Source: Candidatus Micrarchaeia archaeon (GTDB taxonomy: Archaea > Micrarchaeota > Micrarchaeia > Anstonellales > J096). Taken from it: a stretch of DNA of 17,099 nt. The stretch spans positions 1-17,099 of the forward strand of contig JBGQMB010000020.1 in NCBI GenBank assembly GCA_041500405.1, written 5' to 3'. Shown here one piece after another: positions 481 through 15,994 of this stretch. Position 1 is the first letter of the stretch; each line of letters begins with the position of its first letter. Made by a program: the position numbers and the translations under genes. Under the pieces are notes generated by a model. The model did no database searches, was not told the DNA's origin, and was given only the letters and a program-made list of their open reading frames with translations.

Positions 481-588
481 CGTATCGGTTGAATATGCGT
501 AGAATGCGTCTATTGCCGCAAGGCTTTCCTTGCTCTTCCCTATGATGTAGGCTCCGTAGCCGCATTCTGCTGAATACTCCTATGCGTC
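467..588 (-). pseudogene. HMG-CoA synthase gene relic (internal fragment joined to the 3' end)
   Basis: 477-588 aligns without gaps to 2061-2172 (93/112 identical by manual count). It translates to DA*EYSAECGYGAYIIGKSKESLAAIDAFYAYSTDTP vs DALEYSAGCGGAAFIMGKNKESLATIDAFYAYSTDTP. 467-480 is identical to 1558-1571. Confidence 0.92.
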
Positions 589-1434
589 TTCTATCTTTTT
601 TGCCAAAGATTTCAGAGCGCCAATGGTTGCCACCACGTACGTCATGAATGCGAGGCAGAGGGACACCTTCTGATGCAGCCGTCCCCAGAATCCGGACACG
701 TAAGATGCGAGATTATCAAATGCGTAATGGCTGGCGTACGCCTCTTTCCATAGCTGCATCCCGGGGATGAGGGTGGCCAGTTCATATATAGAACGCGTCC
801 ATTTGTTTTTCTTGTTGGCATAATCCTTTGCGTGGCCAAGTTCATGGAGTGCAACCGCGGGAACATCGGAATAAAGAACTGCGACATTTGCGCCAGAACC
901 ATAGGCGTCTCCTCTGACAAAGGCCAGGCCTATTTCTCCAAAAAAGTCCTCGGCGAAGTTCAGCAATCTCATCAAAAACGGATATTTCGCCGCTATCTCC
1001 GGCCTCGTGAACATGCTTACCGCATCTTCCCAGGGGTTGATGTGGTTAAGGCGGATTGTCATATCGGTCAGTTTCGGATCCGTTTTTAGTTGCAGGTATA
1101 CCGAGGCGGCCGTCAGATTGCCGACGCTCGTTCCCACATGGGTATTAATGAGGATTAATTTGGCGGGCATGGAACCCACCCATCCGATCATTCTGACAAG
1201 TTTGGGGTCCTTGCCAACAACCATCCGGTTGTTCTTGCGTTTCATGTCCGGATCGTTGTTGTAACGTTCTACCTGACTTTGGAGAGAACCGGCATCGCTG
1301 GTTAGCGCCATGCGTTCTATGCGGTTTTTTTCTGCATTGAACGCGGCGCTTGCCGTTCGCGATGGGATTGAAGTGCAACTGAGATGGGCTGCAAGCGCTA
1401 TGGTCCCGATATAACCAAGAGTGCGCATCTTCAT
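580..1434 (-). CDS. Putative lipoprotein zinc metallopeptidase (HEXXH, gluzincin-like)
   Basis: 284 aa. N-terminal MKMRTLGYIGTIALAAHLSC signal/lipobox-like Cys20; VALHELGHAKDY motif (832-846); Glu of KEAYAS 30 residues after the second His; hydrophobic C-terminal helix. Confidence 0.7.
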   Translation of the reverse strand: MKMRTLGYIGTIALAAHLSCTSIPSRTASAAFNAEKNRIERMALTSDAGSLQSQVERYNNDPDMKRKNNRMVVGKDPKLVRMIGWVGSMPAKLILINTHVGTSVGNLTAASVYLQLKTDPKLTDMTIRLNHINPWEDAVSMFTRPEIAAKYPFLMRLLNFAEDFFGEIGLAFVRGDAYGSGANVAVLYSDVPAVALHELGHAKDYANKKNKWTRSIYELATLIPGMQLWKEAYASHYAFDNLASYVSGFWGRLHQKVSLCLAFMTYVVATIGALKSLAKKIEDA

Positions 1435-2713: not shown

Positions 2714-2737
2714 GTATTGTTATAATAAATGGTATAT

Positions 2738-3334
2738 ATGGCATTTAAATTCCGGGAATCAAAAAGGATGAAAAAGGCCAGGCAGCGGAAGGAAACGCTT
2801 GAAAGATTCAAGGACCTTTTAGTGAAAGATAAAAATGGAAATCCTATAATAATGCTAAATAAAGAAACAGGAGAAAGAATCTCCAAGATTTTATCTGTCG
2901 ATATGAAACAGAAGGAAAGAATAGAAGCTGGACTTGAAAATATGATATTTGATGCTAAAAAGGAAATTGGACCTATAGATAGCGAGATACAGAGTTATGG
3001 GGTGCTAAAAAAAGGTTACTCAGAAAAGGGAATGATTAGTTATTTTTATAGAGGGAATATTTTTACAGGGAGCTTCTGGGGTTTCGCTGTTGGAGTCGTA
3101 TCAACAATCACAGCAAGGATATCGGTTGTTGGCGCATCTCCAAATTATATCACAGAACTAATCAATTCCGATCCTTTTGCTCCTGTTATGGTAATTGGAT
3201 GCACTGTTGCTGGAGCTGCCATCGGAACGATCAGTGCATTACGTAAGCATATTCGAGAGAATAAGAGAATTAGTGAATTTATAACTACGCTTAATGCGCT
3301 TGGCGTTCAGATAAGGAAAAGCCCAGAAAAATAG
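2738..3334 (+). CDS. Hypothetical two-TM membrane protein, paralog 1 (alternative start 2729)
   Basis: Basic N-terminus MAFKFRESK, two Gly-rich hydrophobic helices, C-terminal LNALG. Clear similarity to 3366-3842; start chosen by paralog alignment and TATA spacing. Confidence 0.85.
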   Translation: MAFKFRESKRMKKARQRKETLERFKDLLVKDKNGNPIIMLNKETGERISKILSVDMKQKERIEAGLENMIFDAKKEIGPIDSEIQSYGVLKKGYSEKGMISYFYRGNIFTGSFWGFAVGVVSTITARISVVGASPNYITELINSDPFAPVMVIGCTVAGAAIGTISALRKHIRENKRISEFITTLNALGVQIRKSPEK

Positions 3335-3337
3335 GTT

Positions 3338-3345
3338 TTTAAATA
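3338..3345 (+). promoter_or_regulatory. TATA box for paralog 2
   Basis: TTTAAATA 20 nt before ATG 3366. Confidence 0.6.
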
Positions 3346-3365
3346 GTGTTATGGCAAGGGTATTC

Positions 3366-3842
3366 ATGGCTTTTAAATTCTGGGAATCAAAAAACAGGAA
3401 ACAGAAAAGAAGCCAGAAGGAGTCGCTTTTGCCGTACAAGGACCTGCTTGAATTGGACAAAGACGGGAAGCCGATGTTCAAATTGAACGCCGACGCGTGC
3501 AGAAGCTGCATCATTGCCGCCAACAATTCGGACGAACCCGCCGTTAAAATACCGGCAGGGGAAGCGAGGATTCTCATTAATCGCACTATGATAAGCTGGA
3601 AAGACTACATAGTGGAATCCTGCCTGGCGGGGGGATTGGGCGGAGCGGCGCTGACTGCGTTAAGCGTCGGCACCAACGGGGTCAAAGAAGGAATAATAAC
3701 ATTGGCGGGCGCTGTGATTGGCGCAGCCCTCTACTTTGGATTGGCGGTATTTAATTTCAGGAGCGAAAACAGCAATGAAAGGTTCGCAAACCAGCTCAAC
3801 GCGCTTGGTCCGGCAATCAGGGAAAGGATGAAAGCAGAGTGA
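3366..3842 (+). CDS. Hypothetical two-TM glycine-zipper membrane protein, paralog 2 (alternative start 3351)
   Basis: MAFKFWESK...KDLLELDKDGKP, LAGGLGGAAL and LAGAVIGAAL helices, C-terminal LNALG. Confidence 0.85.
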   Translation: MAFKFWESKNRKQKRSQKESLLPYKDLLELDKDGKPMFKLNADACRSCIIAANNSDEPAVKIPAGEARILINRTMISWKDYIVESCLAGGLGGAALTALSVGTNGVKEGIITLAGAVIGAALYFGLAVFNFRSENSNERFANQLNALGPAIRERMKAE

Positions 3843-9214: not shown

Positions 9215-9937
9215 ATGGAAAAACAGGCGGTCATACTTGCTGGCGGAAGGGGGCAGAGATTGAGGCCCTACACCGATGCGGCGCCGAAGCCGATGCTCAT
9301 GCTCGGCTCAAAGCCGATACTGGAATACACGGTAGCAAATTTGAAAAGGAACGGTTTCACCGACATAATGATATGCGCGGGATACAAGCACGAGATGATA
9401 AAGAGGCATTTCGGGGACGGAAAGAGGTTCGGGGTCAGCATAACATATTCTATAGAGGAGACTCCGCTGGGGACCGGCGGGGCCTTGGTTGCGGTGAAGG
9501 ACAGGCTGAAAGAGCATTTTGTCCTTGCGATGGCAGACCACGTGACTGACGCCAACCTGGCGGCGCTTTACGACTACCATGTGAAAAGCAAGTCGATGGT
9601 GACGATTGCGCTGGCGGAGATAAGCCACATAAGCGAATACGGCGTTGTTGACGTTGACGACGACACCGTCACGGGATTCAGGGAGAAACCGACGTTCTCA
9701 AACTTGGTCAATACCGCGATATACGCGATTGACAGGAAGATAATGGACCATATAAGGGAAAGGGACGACATGTCGACGGACGTCATACCCCGGATAATGG
9801 AAAGCAGGAAGCTTGTCAACTATTATGTCACAAAGGACTTCTGGAAGGACATCGGGACGGTTAAGGAGTACGAGCATTTCCGCGATTCCTTTGCGTCAAT
9901 AGAGGTTTACCACAACCTGTTCGGCGGGAAAATCTAA
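9215..9937 (+). CDS. Sugar-phosphate nucleotidyltransferase (NDP-sugar pyrophosphorylase)
   Basis: 240 aa. AVILAGGRGQRLRPYT..PKPM, EETPLGTGG, YGVV, FREKP and WKDIGT motifs; starts directly after the DUF92 stop. Confidence 0.93.
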   Translation: MEKQAVILAGGRGQRLRPYTDAAPKPMLMLGSKPILEYTVANLKRNGFTDIMICAGYKHEMIKRHFGDGKRFGVSITYSIEETPLGTGGALVAVKDRLKEHFVLAMADHVTDANLAALYDYHVKSKSMVTIALAEISHISEYGVVDVDDDTVTGFREKPTFSNLVNTAIYAIDRKIMDHIRERDDMSTDVIPRIMESRKLVNYYVTKDFWKDIGTVKEYEHFRDSFASIEVYHNLFGGKI

Positions 9938-10902
9938 ATCAGGAACAGGCAAACACCAATAACTGCGAACACTGTTTCTATTCCAATGAAGAGCAATACC
10001 AGATTTGTCTCCTCTATTCCGTTGAGCATCTTCATCGCAAGCTGCGCGAATCCCCTTGGCCTGTCATTGAGGCAGTAAAGCTTGCCTTGCTTGAATTCGC
10101 CCCACCAGCCTGTTGATGGAAATCCGTTCTTTGCCTTGATTGCGAAGTCAACCAAATACGGAATGAAAACAACTGCGTACATCTCCATCCTTCCTGCGAT
10201 CATCAAAACTGCCAAAAGCCCGCCAATCAGCAGGGTTGCAGTGTCCCCTGGGAACGCCCTTGCCTTTGGGAATCCCAATGCGAATCCTGCTATGAAGGCG
10301 CCTAGCGCAGCAGCCGCAACAAGTGCGATTGTTTCGTTGCCTGCAAGCGCCGCGATTATCAGCAGGCCCAGATACATCGGCATTGCCATGCCGTATTCCA
10401 TGCCGTTGAAGCCTGCAAGCATGTTCGTCAGGTTTGCGGAAACGGTTATTGCAAGCGCGATTATCGCATAGTATAAAATTCCGAAGCCCACCAGCCCGAG
10501 TATCGGGATGAAGATGGACGTGCTTGTGTTGAGCATTGCCGCGATTATTGGCAGGGACGCAAGCATGGGTATGAACGCCTTTGGAAGCTGCGGTATGGAC
10601 ACAAGGTCATCAATTGCGCCTATCAGCAGCAGGAGCGCGGCCGAGAGAATGATTGCAAAGAACAGCGTTGAATCTACCGAAAGCGTTGAAAACGAGATTC
10701 CAAGAATGGCGAAAAGCATGACTGAAAACAGCATGCCTAAGCCTGCGCCAAGGCCTCCCATCTCAGCGACCACTGGATAATCGGGCTTGTTAACGTCCTT
10801 TCCGGATATGCCCGCGCTGACAAGCCTCGGTATCAGGAACGCTATTATGGCGTAGGAAACCACTATTGAAAGCGCCATTGCGGCCAGAACTGCCGGTAAC
10901 AT
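9934..10902 (-). CDS. aglH: UDP-GlcNAc:dolichyl-phosphate GlcNAc-1-P transferase (AglH/GPT, MraY-like Glycos_transf_4)
   Basis: 322 aa, multi-TM. G.DVNK, AEMGGL, GAIDD, NLTNMLAGFNGME and FPGDT motifs; 4-nt convergent overlap with the nucleotidyltransferase. Confidence 0.88.
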   Translation of the reverse strand: MLPAVLAAMALSIVVSYAIIAFLIPRLVSAGISGKDVNKPDYPVVAEMGGLGAGLGMLFSVMLFAILGISFSTLSVDSTLFFAIILSAALLLLIGAIDDLVSIPQLPKAFIPMLASLPIIAAMLNTSTSIFIPILGLVGFGILYYAIIALAITVSANLTNMLAGFNGMEYGMAMPMYLGLLIIAALAGNETIALVAAAALGAFIAGFALGFPKARAFPGDTATLLIGGLLAVLMIAGRMEMYAVVFIPYLVDFAIKAKNGFPSTGWWGEFKQGKLYCLNDRPRGFAQLAMKMLNGIEETNLVLLFIGIETVFAVIGVCLFLI

Positions 10903-10924
10903 GGGTTATGTTGATGCGACGGAG

Positions 10925-11033
10925 ATTTAAAAAGCGTTTTGCCCGGAGTTATGGTAATTGACACACAATTGAACATAGAATACCAGAAACATTTAAAAAT
11001 AGAAGGAAATAAACAAAAGAGTGGATTTAAAAG
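10925..11033. promoter_or_regulatory. Divergent aglH/tfb promoter region with three ATTTAAAA boxes
   Basis: ATTTAAAA at 10925, 10991 and 11025. The first fits aglH (minus strand); the other two precede tfb. GGTGG SD-like element before ATG 11053. Confidence 0.55.
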
Positions 11034-11052
11034 ACTTACTTTTGGTGGGACA

Positions 11053-11292
11053 ATGAAAAAAACAAAGGCAAAGAAGAAGGCAACTAAGAAAGCTATCAAG
11101 AAAAAGCCGGCAAAGAAGAAGATGCTCAAAAAGGTCATAAAAAAGATGCCGAAGGCAAAGCTGAAGGCGAAGCAAAAGCCGAAGCGCCTGCTAAAGCATA
11201 AGCTGAAAGGCAAGGCAAGGCACAGACCAAAGGCGACGCTGAAGCACAAGCCGAAGATAAAGGCAAAGCCGAAGCACAAAACGATGAAAAGG
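11053..11292 (+). repeat. Low-complexity Lys/Ala/Pro-rich coding tract (H1 C-terminal tail-like)
   Basis: 80 aa with 37 K, 4 R and no D/E by manual count; KAK, KPK and KHK units. Confidence 0.85.
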
Positions 11293-12363
11293 GCCGCGCC
11301 AGTGCCGCAGATGATAACACGCGAGGAGCCGCGCGTAGCAGAGATAATAACTGCGCCGCACCACCCGACGGTGCGCGAGAGCTATATAGAAAGGCCTGAG
11401 CCAGCAAGGCAGTACCTTCACCACGCCCCGCCTTCGCAGACGGAGGAAAGCGACGAAACGGTCAAGAAGTGCCCTGAATGCGGCGGCTCAAACCTGATAA
11501 GGGACTATGAAAGGGGGGAGATAATCTGCAGGACATGCGGATTGGTCATAACAGACGCGCTAACGGATTTCGGCCCTGAATGGAGGGCGTTTGACTCAGA
11601 ACAGAAGGACAAGAGGGCAAGGACCGGCGGTCCGACCAAGCTTATGAGGCCGAACAAGGGCCTTGTAACGGAAATAGACCAATACAACAAGGACATAAGG
11701 GGAGCGAAGATAGACAGCAAACTGCAGGCGCAGCTCCACAGGATGAGGAAATGGCACAAGAGGATAAGCATCGCATCCAGCTTCGAGAAGAACCTTGCGA
11801 TAGCGCTGGGCGAGCTGGACAGGGTTGCAAGCTCCCTTGGTTTGCCTGACAACATAAAGGAGAACATAGCCGCGCTTTACAGGAAAGCTGTCAAAAGCGA
11901 GCTCATAAGGGGAAGGCTCATTGAAAGCGTCGTTGCCGCAGTGATTTACGCCGCGTGCAGGATATACGGCATACCAAGGACGCTTGACGAGATAAGCAAG
12001 ATAAGCGGCGTCGAGAAAAAGGAGATAGGAAGGGCTTACAGGTTCCTGAAAAAGGAGCTAGAGCTTGACATTCCGCTTACCGACCCGAGCGCTTATGTTC
12101 CGAAGTTCGCGGTTGTGCTGAACCTCAGCAGGGACGTCCAGATGATGGCGATTGAGATAATCAAGAAGTCGCTCAAGAAGGGATTGATTTCCGGAAGGGG
12201 GCCGACTGGCGTTGCGGCAGCTGCATTGTACATAGCGGCCGCGATGAAGAACGAGAAACGGACCCAGAAGGAAGTTGCGGACGTTGCCGGAGTGACTGAA
12301 GTCACGATAAGGAACAGATACAGGGAACTGAAAAAGGAACTGGAAATCGACATAAACCTTTGA
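11053..12363 (+). CDS. tfb: Transcription initiation factor IIB with a long Lys-rich N-terminal extension
   Basis: 436 aa from ATG 11053. Zn ribbon CPECG...CRTCG from 11470, B-reader GPEWRAF, two cyclin repeats, C-terminal TQKEVADVAGVTEVTIRNRY. The TTG start at 10939 lies in AT-rich promoter DNA. Confidence 0.95.
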   Translation: MKKTKAKKKATKKAIKKKPAKKKMLKKVIKKMPKAKLKAKQKPKRLLKHKLKGKARHRPKATLKHKPKIKAKPKHKTMKRAAPVPQMITREEPRVAEIITAPHHPTVRESYIERPEPARQYLHHAPPSQTEESDETVKKCPECGGSNLIRDYERGEIICRTCGLVITDALTDFGPEWRAFDSEQKDKRARTGGPTKLMRPNKGLVTEIDQYNKDIRGAKIDSKLQAQLHRMRKWHKRISIASSFEKNLAIALGELDRVASSLGLPDNIKENIAALYRKAVKSELIRGRLIESVVAAVIYAACRIYGIPRTLDEISKISGVEKKEIGRAYRFLKKELELDIPLTDPSAYVPKFAVVLNLSRDVQMMAIEIIKKSLKKGLISGRGPTGVAAAALYIAAAMKNEKRTQKEVADVAGVTEVTIRNRYRELKKELEIDINL

Positions 12364-12417
12364 GGTTTGACTTCCGCATCCCATTTGTTTTTAACACTTT
12401 TGATGCTTAAGTCCAGT

Positions 12418-12825
12418 ATGGGGGATGCGCAACTGGACAAGACTATTCCACGCACAGTCCAGCAGCAGGTCCCTGCCAAGAACGCAATGACAGTGGTGCT
12501 CCGCAAGATTGACCCCAAGCTTGACCTTGGGTTGATTGAGGAAATCAGAAGGGGCAGGAAATGCAGGATGGACGTGCTGAAGCACCTGCTTAATGCAGGG
12601 GCAAATCCGAACGCGCAGGCCGAGGACGGATGGAGCGCGCTCCACCTTGCCGTGAAAGAAGAGAACAGGAAGGCGTGCAAGTTCCTGCTGAAGAACGGGG
12701 CCAACGTCAACGCGCTCACGTACGGAAGAAGCACGCCCATGCTGGTTGCCAAATTCCGAGGAAATAACGGCATCATCAGGCTGCTCAGGAAGAGCGGCGG
12801 CGAATCGTCGGAAATTTTCGCTTGA
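12418..12825 (+). CDS. Ankyrin repeat protein (~3 repeats; alternative starts 12403 and 12367)
   Basis: LLNAGANPNA, GWSALHLAV...KFLLKNGANVNA and STPMLVA...IIRLL. TTTTTAAC at 12388-12395 favours ATG 12418. Confidence 0.9.
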   Translation: MGDAQLDKTIPRTVQQQVPAKNAMTVVLRKIDPKLDLGLIEEIRRGRKCRMDVLKHLLNAGANPNAQAEDGWSALHLAVKEENRKACKFLLKNGANVNALTYGRSTPMLVAKFRGNNGIIRLLRKSGGESSEIFA

Positions 12826-12840: not shown

Positions 12841-12862
12841 CATTCTCAATCATCCCCTATTG

Positions 12863-13630
12863 ATGAATCACCAGGATGAAATCCTGAAAAGAGGCTATGC
12901 CGAGGAAGAGCGCAAGCAGAGGGAGCTGAAAAAAGAGGCGGTCGACCTTGGCACGAAGGAGGGCTTCAGGATAGCCTACCTTGCTGAAAAGAAAAAGGAG
13001 CCAACCCCTGTTGAAACAGAGAAGTTCAAGAGCGCGGTTATTGGGCTGAACACGCTGATATCCAAGTCAAACAGCATGGACGAGAAGATACTTTTCAGCG
13101 TCGCGGAGATGGTTGAAAGGGGCGACGCGAGGGGCATAAGCAAGCTTTTCGAGAAAAATCCGGATGCTGCAAAGGCCGCCAACGCAATGATAGAGAACAG
13201 GGAAATGTGCGAATTTGTCATAAGGAACGCGTATGCCAATATGGCGTTCACCAATGAGTTCGGCAGGGTAATGGACGTCAGGGACTTGCTGAAAGTCCAT
13301 ATCGCAATAAAGAAGGACCCGAAATATAGGGCGCTGCTGGAGGAGTTGAGGAAGGACGAAAGGTTCAGGGCGACCCAGGACAAGACAGACCCGATAATCC
13401 TGTACCTGCTTATGAAAAACCTGCTGCCCAGCCTGATGGCGTCCGGCATGTTCGGCAACGCGCTTAAGTCATTCATGGGAAAGATAATGGGAACGCTGAG
13501 CATAAATATAGCGTCGTCTGAAAAGGGCGCCTCGCTCATAGGCAATCTTGCAAAGGCGGTTTCAATTTTCGGCACAGGGGACGGATTCGTCCTTGGCCAG
13601 ATACTGGGGGGATTGGCATGGAAAGGATAG
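12863..13630 (+). CDS. Hypothetical helical protein with hydrophobic Gly-rich C-terminus
   Basis: 255 aa with native-looking codon style; charged N-terminal two-thirds; overlaps the next ORF by 13 nt. Confidence 0.85.
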   Translation: MNHQDEILKRGYAEEERKQRELKKEAVDLGTKEGFRIAYLAEKKKEPTPVETEKFKSAVIGLNTLISKSNSMDEKILFSVAEMVERGDARGISKLFEKNPDAAKAANAMIENREMCEFVIRNAYANMAFTNEFGRVMDVRDLLKVHIAIKKDPKYRALLEELRKDERFRATQDKTDPIILYLLMKNLLPSLMASGMFGNALKSFMGKIMGTLSINIASSEKGASLIGNLAKAVSIFGTGDGFVLGQILGGLAWKG

Positions 13631-14802
13631 ACGACTATGCCAAGGAAAAGCCGCTCAGCGGATTCGTAAACCCGCTCATGCTGTCATCTTCAATAGAGCC
13701 GGGAAAAAGCATGGCGTCCGATATTCTGGGCGCCGCCATGGACGGCTCGATAAGGGACATATTCTTTTCAAGGATGCTGTTTGAGTTCATGCCAACGCTG
13801 GGGCTTAGGTTCAATAAAGCCAAATGGCACGTGCTGGAGCTGGAGGAGAACGCGGGAGAAGGGATATGCCCGTATGGCCAGTGCGAGAACCAGTCTGAGA
13901 TGGAAGTGAGCGCCGACGGAACAGTGAAGCTGGGCGGTGAAAGGACCGAGATGCCGAACCCGTTCACCAGCATAAGGAAGCCGTTCAAGGCTGTGGTGAG
14001 GGCAGACCCGCTTGAGCCGTCCATCTACAGGGCAAACTTCGTGAGCTATTTCAACATCTCGGCGCTTGACATCTGCTCAATGGAATCAAACGGAAAGTCC
14101 TTCGGCTGGAAGATGAGGGAAACCGAGCTTCCGGAAAATCCGCTTTTCGCGCTTTCGGAGATAGCAGGCAACAGGGAAATAGGCGGGATCGAGAAGGACG
14201 GGGTCATGTATCCCAATCCGCTGCTGATGTGGAACGAGGCGTTCTCGCTGAACGTCTGCGACAAGTCAAAGGGCGCAGAAAGGATGAGGAACGACGCAAG
14301 GTACGAAACGTTGAGGGAGGCAAGCTCGTTCATAAAGCACTTTGTCTCGCTTGGCGGGAAGTGCGGAAGCGCCAACGAGGAAAGGCATCGGAAATACAGC
14401 CTGATGTCAAAGGACGTCATCCTGGGCGACAGCATAAAGGAAAGCGCCATCGGCGCAATGAACAAGGAGTTTGACTACAATGAAAAGGGCGGGATGACTG
14501 TGTGCAAGCTCGGCACGCTCCTGGCAGCCCTTGCGAGGGATTCGGACGAGGGAAGGATAACCCTGCGCTACAGCGAGCTTTCCGAAAAGGCCGCGAACCC
14601 GAAAGGCACGCCGAAGGAGGCGATGGTGGACACGGACCTGTTCCTTCTTGGCGACAATGACGTGAGCTTCTACAAGGACGGGAACGAGATAATCATCAAC
14701 ATATCGCTCAGCAGGATGACGAACGACGATTACTTTTTGAACATTCCGTACAGATACAGGACAGAGAGGATAAAGGACAGGATAGTGCTCATGGTGGAAT
14801 GA
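13618..14802 (+). CDS. Hypothetical protein
   Basis: 394-aa ORF with native-looking codon style, coupled to both neighbours; no recognised family motif. Confidence 0.85.
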   Translation: MERIDDYAKEKPLSGFVNPLMLSSSIEPGKSMASDILGAAMDGSIRDIFFSRMLFEFMPTLGLRFNKAKWHVLELEENAGEGICPYGQCENQSEMEVSADGTVKLGGERTEMPNPFTSIRKPFKAVVRADPLEPSIYRANFVSYFNISALDICSMESNGKSFGWKMRETELPENPLFALSEIAGNREIGGIEKDGVMYPNPLLMWNEAFSLNVCDKSKGAERMRNDARYETLREASSFIKHFVSLGGKCGSANEERHRKYSLMSKDVILGDSIKESAIGAMNKEFDYNEKGGMTVCKLGTLLAALARDSDEGRITLRYSELSEKAANPKGTPKEAMVDTDLFLLGDNDVSFYKDGNEIIINISLSRMTNDDYFLNIPYRYRTERIKDRIVLMVE

Positions 14803-15483: not shown

Positions 15484-15508
15484 AAAAAAGAAGGGATTTT
15501 TTCCCTTC
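15482..15508 (-). terminator. Hairpin plus U-tract terminator between convergent genes
   Basis: GAAGGGA (15490-15496) pairs with TCCCTTC (15502-15508), a 7-bp stem with a 5-nt loop. It is followed on the minus strand by U8 (A run 15482-15489). Confidence 0.65.
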
Positions 15509-15950
15509 ACTTCTTCATCAGCACGGCAATGTAGTAGCCGATTGCGGAGATTATCGCGCCGCACACCGGGAACAGCAGCGCTATGCACACCGTGCCAATC
15601 AGCCCGCCGGTCATTGTGCCCGCTGTGCCGAGCACAGAGGCTATAACGGCGTCTTCGCTTTCGCTGGTCATGGTGACTGCGGCAAGCCCGAGCGCGTTCA
15701 GGATAATGCTGACAAGGAACTGGGACACGACATACACTATGCCGGCAACGATTGCGGCGATTGCGCCTACAACCGCGCTGTCGGCCATTCCAAATCCCTT
15801 TGCCTTAAGCCCATATCCCATCCATAGGTAAAGCGCGAGCATGACCGGCCACATGCAGCACGATATGAACGGCAGGTTAACCGCAATCTGCGCAAGCATT
15901 ATCAGCACTATCGGTATCATTGAAGCCATCAAAGAGTCAATTATCCTCAT
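15507..15950 (-). CDS. Hypothetical ~4-TM membrane protein (alternative GTG start 15959)
   Basis: Four or more hydrophobic segments; AGGTG SD-like element before ATG 15950; TTTAAAAA on the minus strand at 15985-15992. Confidence 0.8.
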   Translation of the reverse strand: MRIIDSLMASMIPIVLIMLAQIAVNLPFISCCMWPVMLALYLWMGYGLKAKGFGMADSAVVGAIAAIVAGIVYVVSQFLVSIILNALGLAAVTMTSESEDAVIASVLGTAGTMTGGLIGTVCIALLFPVCGAIISAIGYYIAVLMKK

Positions 15951-15994
15951 TTTATGCACCTTGGATTGCGTTTCCCTGCGCTTGTTTTTAAACC

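Follow-up and report, generated by a model that had tools for sequence, protein, structure and literature searches.

Few transcription factors are as conserved or as well studied as TFB and TFIIB, whose N-terminus is normally just the zinc ribbon. Why, then, does the TFB of a Candidatus Micrarchaeia archaeon begin with 139 residues ahead of the ribbon, the first 80 of them crowded with lysine? We addressed this question for the TFB gene in a 17,099-nucleotide stretch of contig C20 (GenBank JBGQMB010000020.1; hereafter the window), in a genome of 916,473 bases on 60 contigs that is rated 86% complete (G000, genus g1). The labels of close homologues and of related contigs assign it to the Micrarchaeota (DPANN), and several relatives bear the label Anstonellales. 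With a probability of roughly 0.55, we consider that this is the sole TFB of a histone-less archaeon, and that its 139-residue disordered tail is kept for charge and composition and would act as an unspecific electrostatic grip on DNA.

The open reading frame (ORF) lies on the + strand, from 10939 (TTG) or 11053 (ATG) to 12363. Read from ATG 11053 it encodes 436 residues, and the first cysteine of the zinc ribbon is residue 140, which leaves 139 residues before the ribbon. Residues 1-80 contain 37 K, 4 R and 4 H and no D or E (net +41; K 46%, A 11%, P 7.5%), while residues 81-139 contain 9 P, 9 E, 5 R, 4 H, 2 K and 1 D (net -3). A preliminary description of this DNA had listed 139 residues, 37 K plus 4 R and no acidic residue, in frame with TFB. 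Every figure was correct, and the tail does belong to the TFB frame. Among the 3065 ORFs of 60 residues or longer that were scanned, the tail was the longest polybasic tract of the genome and ranked second by net charge over 40 residues. The identical protein is present in independent NCBI, Logan and JGI assemblies, so the tail is not an assembly artefact. The minus-strand ORFs that overlap the gene (10863..11279 and others) are the F/L-rich mirror of the lysine codons.

The rest of the protein has all the features of a TFB. We observed a match of residues 139-180 to the Pfam family Zn_Ribbon_TF (PF08271; E 3.9e-17) and of two stretches to the TFIIB cyclin repeats (PF00382; E 8.9e-47). The latter are the genome's two matches to this family and are the two repeats of one ORF, i.e. 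G000 has a single TFB gene. Residues 139-425 form one continuous alignment with residues 14-291 of human TFIIB in PDB, and the Pyrococcus TFB core (1ais/1d3u) matches the core at E ~5e-60. The CxxC...CxxC ribbon, the B-reader/B-linker and two cyclin-fold repeats are all present; in an alignment of 36 sequences, C140, C143, C159 and C162 of the ribbon were invariant, as were W177, G192 and P194 of the B-reader/linker region. From its being the sole TFB of the genome, with a core 100% identical to that of a second genome of the same genus (G001), we infer that the protein directs promoter-dependent initiation with TBP and RNA polymerase (RNAP).

The tail itself matched nothing. No Pfam family was hit by residues 1-125 at E<=1, and a search of the ESM Atlas with residues 1-139 returned no usable match. 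Residues 1-139 contain no GRP (R-G-R-P core) AT-hook motif, and Tandem Repeats Finder reported only three weak arrays (16-38 nt, scores 32-39) and no regular repeat. AlphaFold2, run on the 36-sequence alignment, gave residues 1-134 a predicted local distance difference test score (pLDDT) below 50 and no secondary structure; the ribbon was confident with three strands, and the cyclin domains reached pLDDT 90-96. Judged from these comparisons, the protein belongs fully to the TFB family, and its tail to no known family.

The tail would disappear from the protein if the start were mis-annotated, i.e. if translation began at ATG 11284, ATG 11311 or another codon and the K-rich stretch were an untranslated leader or a separate small ORF. 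Gene callers do disagree. Public calls for this TFB family use three starts, namely 34 codons upstream, the conserved ATG and an internal Met (P0276, P0004, P0006); the JGI call P0276 begins at ATG 10951, and the database call of a close relative, P0004 (364 residues), begins at an internal Met. We rejected P0004 as a tail-less close relative, since this internal-start call lies letter for letter within P0272 (447 residues), which has an 83-residue basic segment. The start at ATG 10951 was also rejected: the stretch downstream of it includes the conserved TATA box, and it is not kept in G001, where a stop codon interrupts the frame 15 codons before the Met.

The upstream region points to ATG 11053. 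When the 130 bases 5' of this codon were aligned for nine tail-bearing loci, the TATA box, the TTTAAAAG element and the Shine-Dalgarno (SD) site were all kept with equal spacing in eight loci, those of g1 and g3; the g6 locus did not align. The promoter block GAAAnnTTTAAAAA was kept in 8 of the 9 aligned loci (g1 and g3). Nearly all TFB orthologue starts read have a GAGGTG or GGTGG-type site upstream, visible in the stop-to-stop frames as 'GG' preceding the Met. On reading the sequence, no SD-type site was found upstream of ATG 11122, 11284 or 11311, and G001 has I and V in place of Met 78 and Met 87. Ten variants keep the frame open despite ~50% amino-acid divergence, and the dN/dS of the tail (the ratio of non-synonymous to synonymous substitution rates) is below 1. 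A mis-annotated start is thus very improbable. On this comparative evidence the translation start is most probably ATG 11053, where the preliminary description had placed it, and the internal starts that it had named as refuting its reading (ATG 11284 and 11311) find no support. Annotators should be aware that database lengths understate or overstate the tail, since calls begin at three codons. In our own alignments the window TFB is represented by the P0001 row, and rows L001-L003 begin at the upstream ATG 10951.

We further compared the tail with those of its nearest relatives. Between G000 and G001, core residues 140-436 are identical at 297 of 297 positions, with 91 codons synonymously changed. 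In tail residues 1-80, only 19 codons are identical, 19 are synonymous and 41 non-synonymous, and the indels are of whole codons. Ten genus-level variants (P0001, P0277, G001, P0002/L100, P0003, P0272, P0005, G002, L101 and P0007/L102) have tails of 119-157 residues; P0277 is a strain variant of P0001 that is 20 residues shorter. The eight variants that were measured have a common build, with 69-86 basic residues (0-1 D/E) followed by a P/H-rich linker of 59-73 residues (net -2 to -7), the basic segments being delimited by a charge rule that by construction disfavours D/E near the segment ends. At its end the linker carries a genus-conserved motif, E-ESDE[TS][VI]K[KT], which adjoins the ribbon in all nine aligned tails. 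The composition of the tail is therefore kept and its sequence is not, lengths differing by in-frame indels.

Such turnover might also be seen in tolerated junk, i.e. a near-neutral low-complexity expansion that grew out of a short ancestral MKxKKK N-terminus when replication slipped in an A-rich tract, and that persists only since the TFB N-terminus is solvent-exposed and the essential core needs an open frame. Both sequence and length change fast (as with the 20 residues missing from P0277), in-frame indels are common, weak tandem repeats of 5-12 nt are present, and the tail of G011, a g6 genome, has an internal duplication of 27 residues. Because the essential core downstream enforces an open frame, the case for selection lies in the low dN/dS and in the way acidic residues are kept out. 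For the polybasic segment, the two pairs with the least saturation gave dN/dS values of 0.18 and 0.34; the linker gave 0.20 and 0.05 and the core <=0.03 (values that come from 71-75 codons of low-complexity sequence with uncertain alignment), where junk would be near 1. The basic segments hold 0-1 acidic residues, although a single transition turns K into E, as it does K into R; over the eight variants we counted 29 R against 2 D/E, a count taken from non-independent variants by a partly circular segment rule. Judged from these comparisons, the tail is probably retained by selection for charge and composition and not for sequence, its length changing by in-frame slippage.

To place the tail more widely, we drew on an order survey of 176 genomes, with TFB matches at E<=1e-40 in 167 of them; the listing covered 150 matches and left out 37. 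All loci fetched from it were read, as were twelve further loci picked for the longest open frames, and the ribbon was located by tblastn anchoring. Within the family of 19 genomes, the tails are 139, 142 and 157 residues long in g1, 65 in g3, and 226, at least 146 (contig end), 34 and 30 in g6. Genera g2 and g4 and two g5 genomes have K-rich N-termini of 13-15 residues. Five family genomes, not individually read, have open frames of 317-325 residues that leave at most ~28 residues before the ribbon. Pre-ribbon length and charge across orthologues, a comparison which the preliminary description had called for, thus gave 119-157 residues among the genus variants and 30-226 in the family; that description had also allowed for absence of the tail in close relatives, and every close relative found keeps it.

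In most of the order's TFBs that were read, the ribbon is preceded by 3-15 residues, which bears out the earlier statement that archaeal TFBs start close to it. Both this majority of tail-less relatives and the short K-runs (13-15 residues) of the sister genera are compatible with tolerated junk. Outside the family, the only basic-tailed TFB among the order loci read was that of G019 (43 residues, net +11); metagenome contigs add L103 (72 residues) and L106 (106 residues, net +37, in another clade). Long open frames 5' of TFB in G097, G138, G083, G085, G150 and G167, and likewise in G159, G060, G111, G099 and G134, were read as non-coding upstream sequence and were rejected as tails. In a separate observation, the TFBs of three metagenome contigs (L111-L113) have a 31-residue N-terminus of alternating E/R/K (EVERVREKEKEREKEIERKEIERED), which is mixed-charge and not basic. 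In a tree of 95 TFB cores, the tailed forms of the family fall within one 15-row clade (support 97 in the Shimodaira-Hasegawa-like approximate likelihood ratio test, SH-aLRT), and L106 and G019 lie elsewhere.

A HMMER scan of 1.84 billion cluster representatives extended the search. From its best 150 matches we fetched 16 TFBs (14 with a match start at or beyond residue 40 and two of intein type; P0204 was left out). Eleven of the 16 have ~88 or more pre-ribbon residues, and therefore the TFB N-terminus tolerates additions. The extensions of P0163, P0190, P0230, P0260 and P0269 are acidic or S/T-rich (haloarchaeal-type), unlike the basic tail of the window, and those of P0128, P0139, P0157 and P0252 look folded, unlike its disordered one. 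Two of the 16, P0121 and P0123, are basic-tailed. P0121 has ~110 basic residues and then an acidic linker (core 55% identical). P0123 (617 residues, from ENA, on one 2119-base contig; core 57% identical) has an extension of ~315 residues with five GRP AT-hook motifs and then a strongly acidic D/E/S stretch.

As L106, G019, P0121 and P0123 are all separate, basic N-terminal tails on TFB are, by this phylogenetic and sequence evidence, a feature gained several times. P0121 and P0123 share the order basic-acidic-ribbon with the window TFB, and this recurrence in unrelated proteins also speaks against tolerated junk. AT-hooks bind the minor groove of DNA, and those of P0123 lend independent support, at the sequence level, to DNA as the likely target.

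We observed that TFB is not the only initiation factor with such a tail. In the genome-wide scan for K-tracts, long tracts occurred on very few proteins, and TFB and TFE-alpha were the top two of known function. TFE-alpha is a protein of 231 residues (C1:49074-49766, + strand; locus L122:575-1267) with a TFIIE-alpha winged helix (PF02002, E 9e-14, residues 24-103) and two CxxC pairs that form a zinc ribbon. Its order is zinc ribbon, P/H-rich stretch and polybasic C-terminus; 66 residues with 22 K extend past the aligned core, and the polybasic end comprises ~45 K-rich residues. A basic extension of at least 30 residues was present in 5 of the 30 TFE-alpha loci read (G000, G001 and G002 of g1, G004 of g3 and G007 of g6), and in 10 of 23 database homologues, namely the ten closest. 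TBP of G000, which was also checked, is of normal length and has no acidic or basic tail.

In g6 the two tails appear to trade places: G007 has 34 residues on TFB and 65 on TFE-alpha, G011 has 226 and 7, and G016 has at least 146 and 6. This is suggestive of a long tail on either factor, in a reciprocal manner. A parallel TFE-alpha tail of this kind, reciprocal in g6, is not what tolerated junk would predict. Together with the acidic-residue exclusion and the dN/dS values, it leads us to consider tolerated junk unlikely, although not negligible. The matching tail on TFE-alpha shifts the reading from a TFB plus a chromatin module to an initiation complex with polybasic tails, and, with the either-or placement in g6, makes the initiation complex seem the functional unit rather than TFB alone.

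The zinc ribbons of TFB and TFE-alpha are both RNAP-docking modules. A broader explanation would see in the tail a portable electrostatic module, attached through a P/H-rich linker to the docking ribbon of TFB, of TFE-alpha or of both, that may stand in for extra factors or chromatin in a histone-less, TFE-beta-less branch of Micrarchaeota. TFE-beta is stated to be absent from DPANN (PMC7289017), and TFE-alpha is described as binding the clamp and the non-template DNA strand (PMC13502027). Such a module might clamp flanking DNA, aid DNA opening or form nucleic-acid coacervate 'hubs' in ultra-small cells, with the dose of charge balanced between TFB and TFE-alpha. We hold this broader explanation to be conceivable, and to be a good deal less probable than the plain DNA grip.

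Does the chromatin of this lineage explain the tail? The histone fold (PF00808) was found in none of the 19 family genomes, five of which are at least 90% complete, and in 51 of the 176 order genomes. By family within the order, it was present in 40/42 genomes of f6, 2/2 of f12, 2/2 of f3, 1/1 of f4, 6/99 of f9 and 0/18 of f1, and in none of f2, f5, f7, f8, f10 and f11. Such a patchy distribution fits a review in which a table scores Micrarchaeota as histone-positive from ARMAN-2 (PMC6136690). Alba was found in 18 of the 19 family genomes; in G000, HU and MC1 were not found, only Alba. The count of TFB paralogues and histones that the preliminary description had proposed came to one TFB and zero histones detected in G000, which leaves no rival for the competition with histones that it had suggested.

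Every tailed lineage searched is without histones. A global chromatin role would fit this, with TFB doubling as an H1-like compaction protein or condensate former in a genome that has lost histones: G000 has Alba but no histone, HU or MC1 was found, and the composition of the tail resembles that of H1 tails. Against it, histone-less relatives without a tail are the majority (93 of 99 genomes in f9), a single-copy essential initiation factor would be titrated off promoters, and there is no homology to H1, Hc1 or AlgP. We regard such a role as improbable. Histone loss as the cause of the tail was likewise rejected as insufficient, as short TFB N-termini prevail among the histone-less genomes of the order; losing histones may make room for tails but does not account for them. 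The suggestion that the tail is tuned by lysine modification found no support, as neither the SIR2 nor the HDAC family was found in G000 (86% complete); acetyl- and methyltransferases were not searched for.

How might an electrostatic DNA grip work? We infer unspecific binding of nucleic acid by the tail. Through electrostatic contacts with DNA it would hold TFB on the nucleoid, and since it is tethered to the ribbon by a linker of ~60 residues, it could reach promoter-flanking DNA in the pre-initiation complex. In this way it might raise the dwell time of TFB on DNA and stabilise the formation or opening of the complex. The mildly acidic linker could be a simple spacer, or could fold back onto the basic part.

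Several points weigh against the DNA grip. The tail has K and not R as its main basic residue, with L/I/M/V at the spacing of a helix, features that would suit binding to RNA or a membrane as well as to DNA. In TFIIB-Pol II structures the ribbon sits beside the RNA exit channel, which equally allows contact with RNA. Most TFBs read in the order, many histone-less lineages included, have no tail; in f9, 93 of 99 genomes are without histones and their TFB N-termini were read as short, so that the tail is not needed for TFB function. An open frame alone is no proof that the tail functions, the core being translated through it. The charge rule for the basic segments and the small, uncertainly aligned codon sample behind dN/dS also count here, as does the thin base of the g6 pattern (three genomes of one genus).

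The first two of these points lead to an RNA-directed tail, in which the polybasic segment would bind the nascent RNA beside the B-ribbon, or other RNA, and aid promoter escape, TFB release or a link to RNA handling. Such a role would fit its attachment to the ribbon, which lies at the dock close to where RNA leaves the polymerase, and ribosomal proteins are among the other K-tailed proteins of G000; K-rich intrinsically disordered regions are described as typical of ribosomal and small nucleolar ribonucleoprotein (snoRNP) proteins (PMC11528048). The AT-hook version of the tail on the distant TFB P0123 points to DNA instead, and the same kind of tail sits on TFE-alpha, a binder of the clamp and the non-template strand (PMC13502027). 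We therefore consider an RNA target rather unlikely, though less so than a global chromatin role.

Taken together, the sequence evidence suggests that transcription initiation in this lineage comes with an unspecific DNA grip of its own, which bears on how DPANN archaea organise and read their DNA without histones. The family also offers a natural length series of 4, 13, 30, 65, 139 and 226 basic residues on a near-invariant TFB core. With the TFE-alpha tail and the AT-hook TFB, this series is a ready-made experiment on how the unspecific DNA affinity of a disordered tail tunes the search for promoters and the stability of the complex. Such work is usually confined to eukaryotic factors, and here the question could be put to a minimal archaeal system.

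Table 1. Features of the TFB gene, in window coordinates.
Feature	Position	Strand	Basis
Promoter GAAAC-A-TTTAAAAA-TAG: B recognition element (BRE)-like purines and TATA box (TATA-like TTTAAAAA, 10992-10999), ~60 nt 5' of the ATG	10986..11002	+	upstream element GAAACATTTAAAAATAG contains the TATA at 10992-10999
Second TTTAAAAG element, ~27 nt 5' of the ATG; second TATA or initiator-region element	11026..11033	+	conserved as (A/T)TTTAAAA in 8 g1/g3 loci
Shine-Dalgarno TGGTGGG, 3-4 nt 5' of the start codon	11043..11049	+	TGGTGG kept in 8/8 g1/g3 loci
Polybasic segment, residues 1-80	11053..11292	+	residue counts; predicted disorder; dN/dS; alignment of nine genus-level tails
P/E/H/R-rich linker, residues 81-139, net -3	11293..11469	+	counts; nine-tail alignment; dN/dS; pLDDT <50 to residue 134
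TFB zinc ribbon (B-ribbon), residues 139-180, Cys 140/143/159/162	11467..11592	+	PF08271
B-reader / B-linker region	11593..11793	+	aligned with human and yeast TFIIB in PDB; 100% identical between G000 and G001
Two TFIIB cyclin-fold repeats (core binding TBP and BRE DNA)	11794..12336	+	Pfam 11794-12054 and 12073-12336, both above cut-off
Stop codon TGA	12361..12363	+	ORF reading

The neighbours of TFB have no evident functional link to it. An ankyrin-repeat protein lies directly downstream (12367-12825, +), and a divergent family-4 glycosyltransferase upstream (9934-10902, -). ORFs of 149-394 residues without a Pfam match at E<=0.001 lie at 12860-14802 (+), 580-1434 (-), 2729-3842 (+) and 15507-15959 (-). 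The remaining genes of the window are housekeeping ones: ribosomal S12 and S7, an aIF5B-type GTPase, an arginase family protein, NUDIX, an HMG-CoA synthase-like protein, a sugar nucleotidyltransferase, a PolD DP2 fragment and a helix-turn-helix (HTH) protein.

Two proteins elsewhere in the genome also have basic tails. A 100-residue protein without a Pfam match (C19:15074-15373, -; locus L156) has two GYLYYVG-DG-V repeats and a K/R tail of 30 residues. It looks like the blades of PQQ-type beta-propellers and, in PDB, like the designed 'Cake' propellers (E 1e-9). All 19 family genomes have it, most of them together with a tail-less paralogue of 70-74 residues, and it may be a small oligomeric nucleic-acid-binding protein. 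The other, of 331 residues (C9:6483, +), has repeated RLRWQC-KGH-W...CP-C units (zinc-ribbon-like) and a short K-rich C-terminal tail.

Finally, we compared the tailed TFB with known systems. Canonical TFB and TFIIB (PF08271 with PF00382; 1ais/1d3u; human TFIIB in the pre-initiation complex, e.g. 5iy6) have the ribbon, the B-reader/linker and the two repeats in common with it. In the solved TFIIB/TFB chains the ribbon match begins at residue 6-21, whereas in the window TFB 139 disordered residues lie ahead. In a literature search that left subscription journals uncovered, we found no description of a polybasic or AT-hook tail on an archaeal TFB, or of a basic tail on TFE-alpha; the tailed TFB, the AT-hook TFB and the tailed TFE-alpha thus appear to be undescribed in the literature covered.

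The histone H1 C-terminal domain, AlgP, chlamydial Hc1/Hc2 and mycobacterial HupB have K/A/P-rich tails that bind or condense DNA. Like these, the window tail is K-rich with A and P, has no acidic residues in its basic segment and is disordered (predicted here). Unlike them, it has no homology to H1-like proteins, no globular H1 domain and no KPAA-type repeat, is richer in L/I/M/V and His and is fused to a transcription factor; no Linker_histone winged-helix domain was found in it (Pfam, residues 1-125; AlphaFold2, residues 1-134 predicted unfolded). The term histone-H1-tail-like, used in the preliminary description, thus holds for composition and predicted disorder, and fails for homology, the H1 globular domain, the AT-hook and a regular repeat; the likeness to H1 appears to be compositional only. 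HMGA proteins and the N-terminal AT-hook domain of fission-yeast Orc4 are AT-hook/HMGA-type extensions. P0123 is like HMGA and Orc4 in having a basic disordered extension at the N-terminus of a conserved initiation factor, while the window tail is without the GRP core.

Rpo13 of the Sulfolobus RNAP is, like TFB, a component of the basal archaeal transcription machinery, and has a disordered Glu-rich end and a Lys-rich end (PMC3479171). According to the same text, deletion of its K-rich tail (residues 85-104) abolished unspecific binding of double-stranded DNA in an electrophoretic mobility shift assay. Rpo13 differs from TFB in being an RNAP subunit that contacts downstream DNA, in having a tail of 20 residues and not 80, and in sharing no homology with it. 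By analogy, it may be taken as the closest tested precedent for the window tail.

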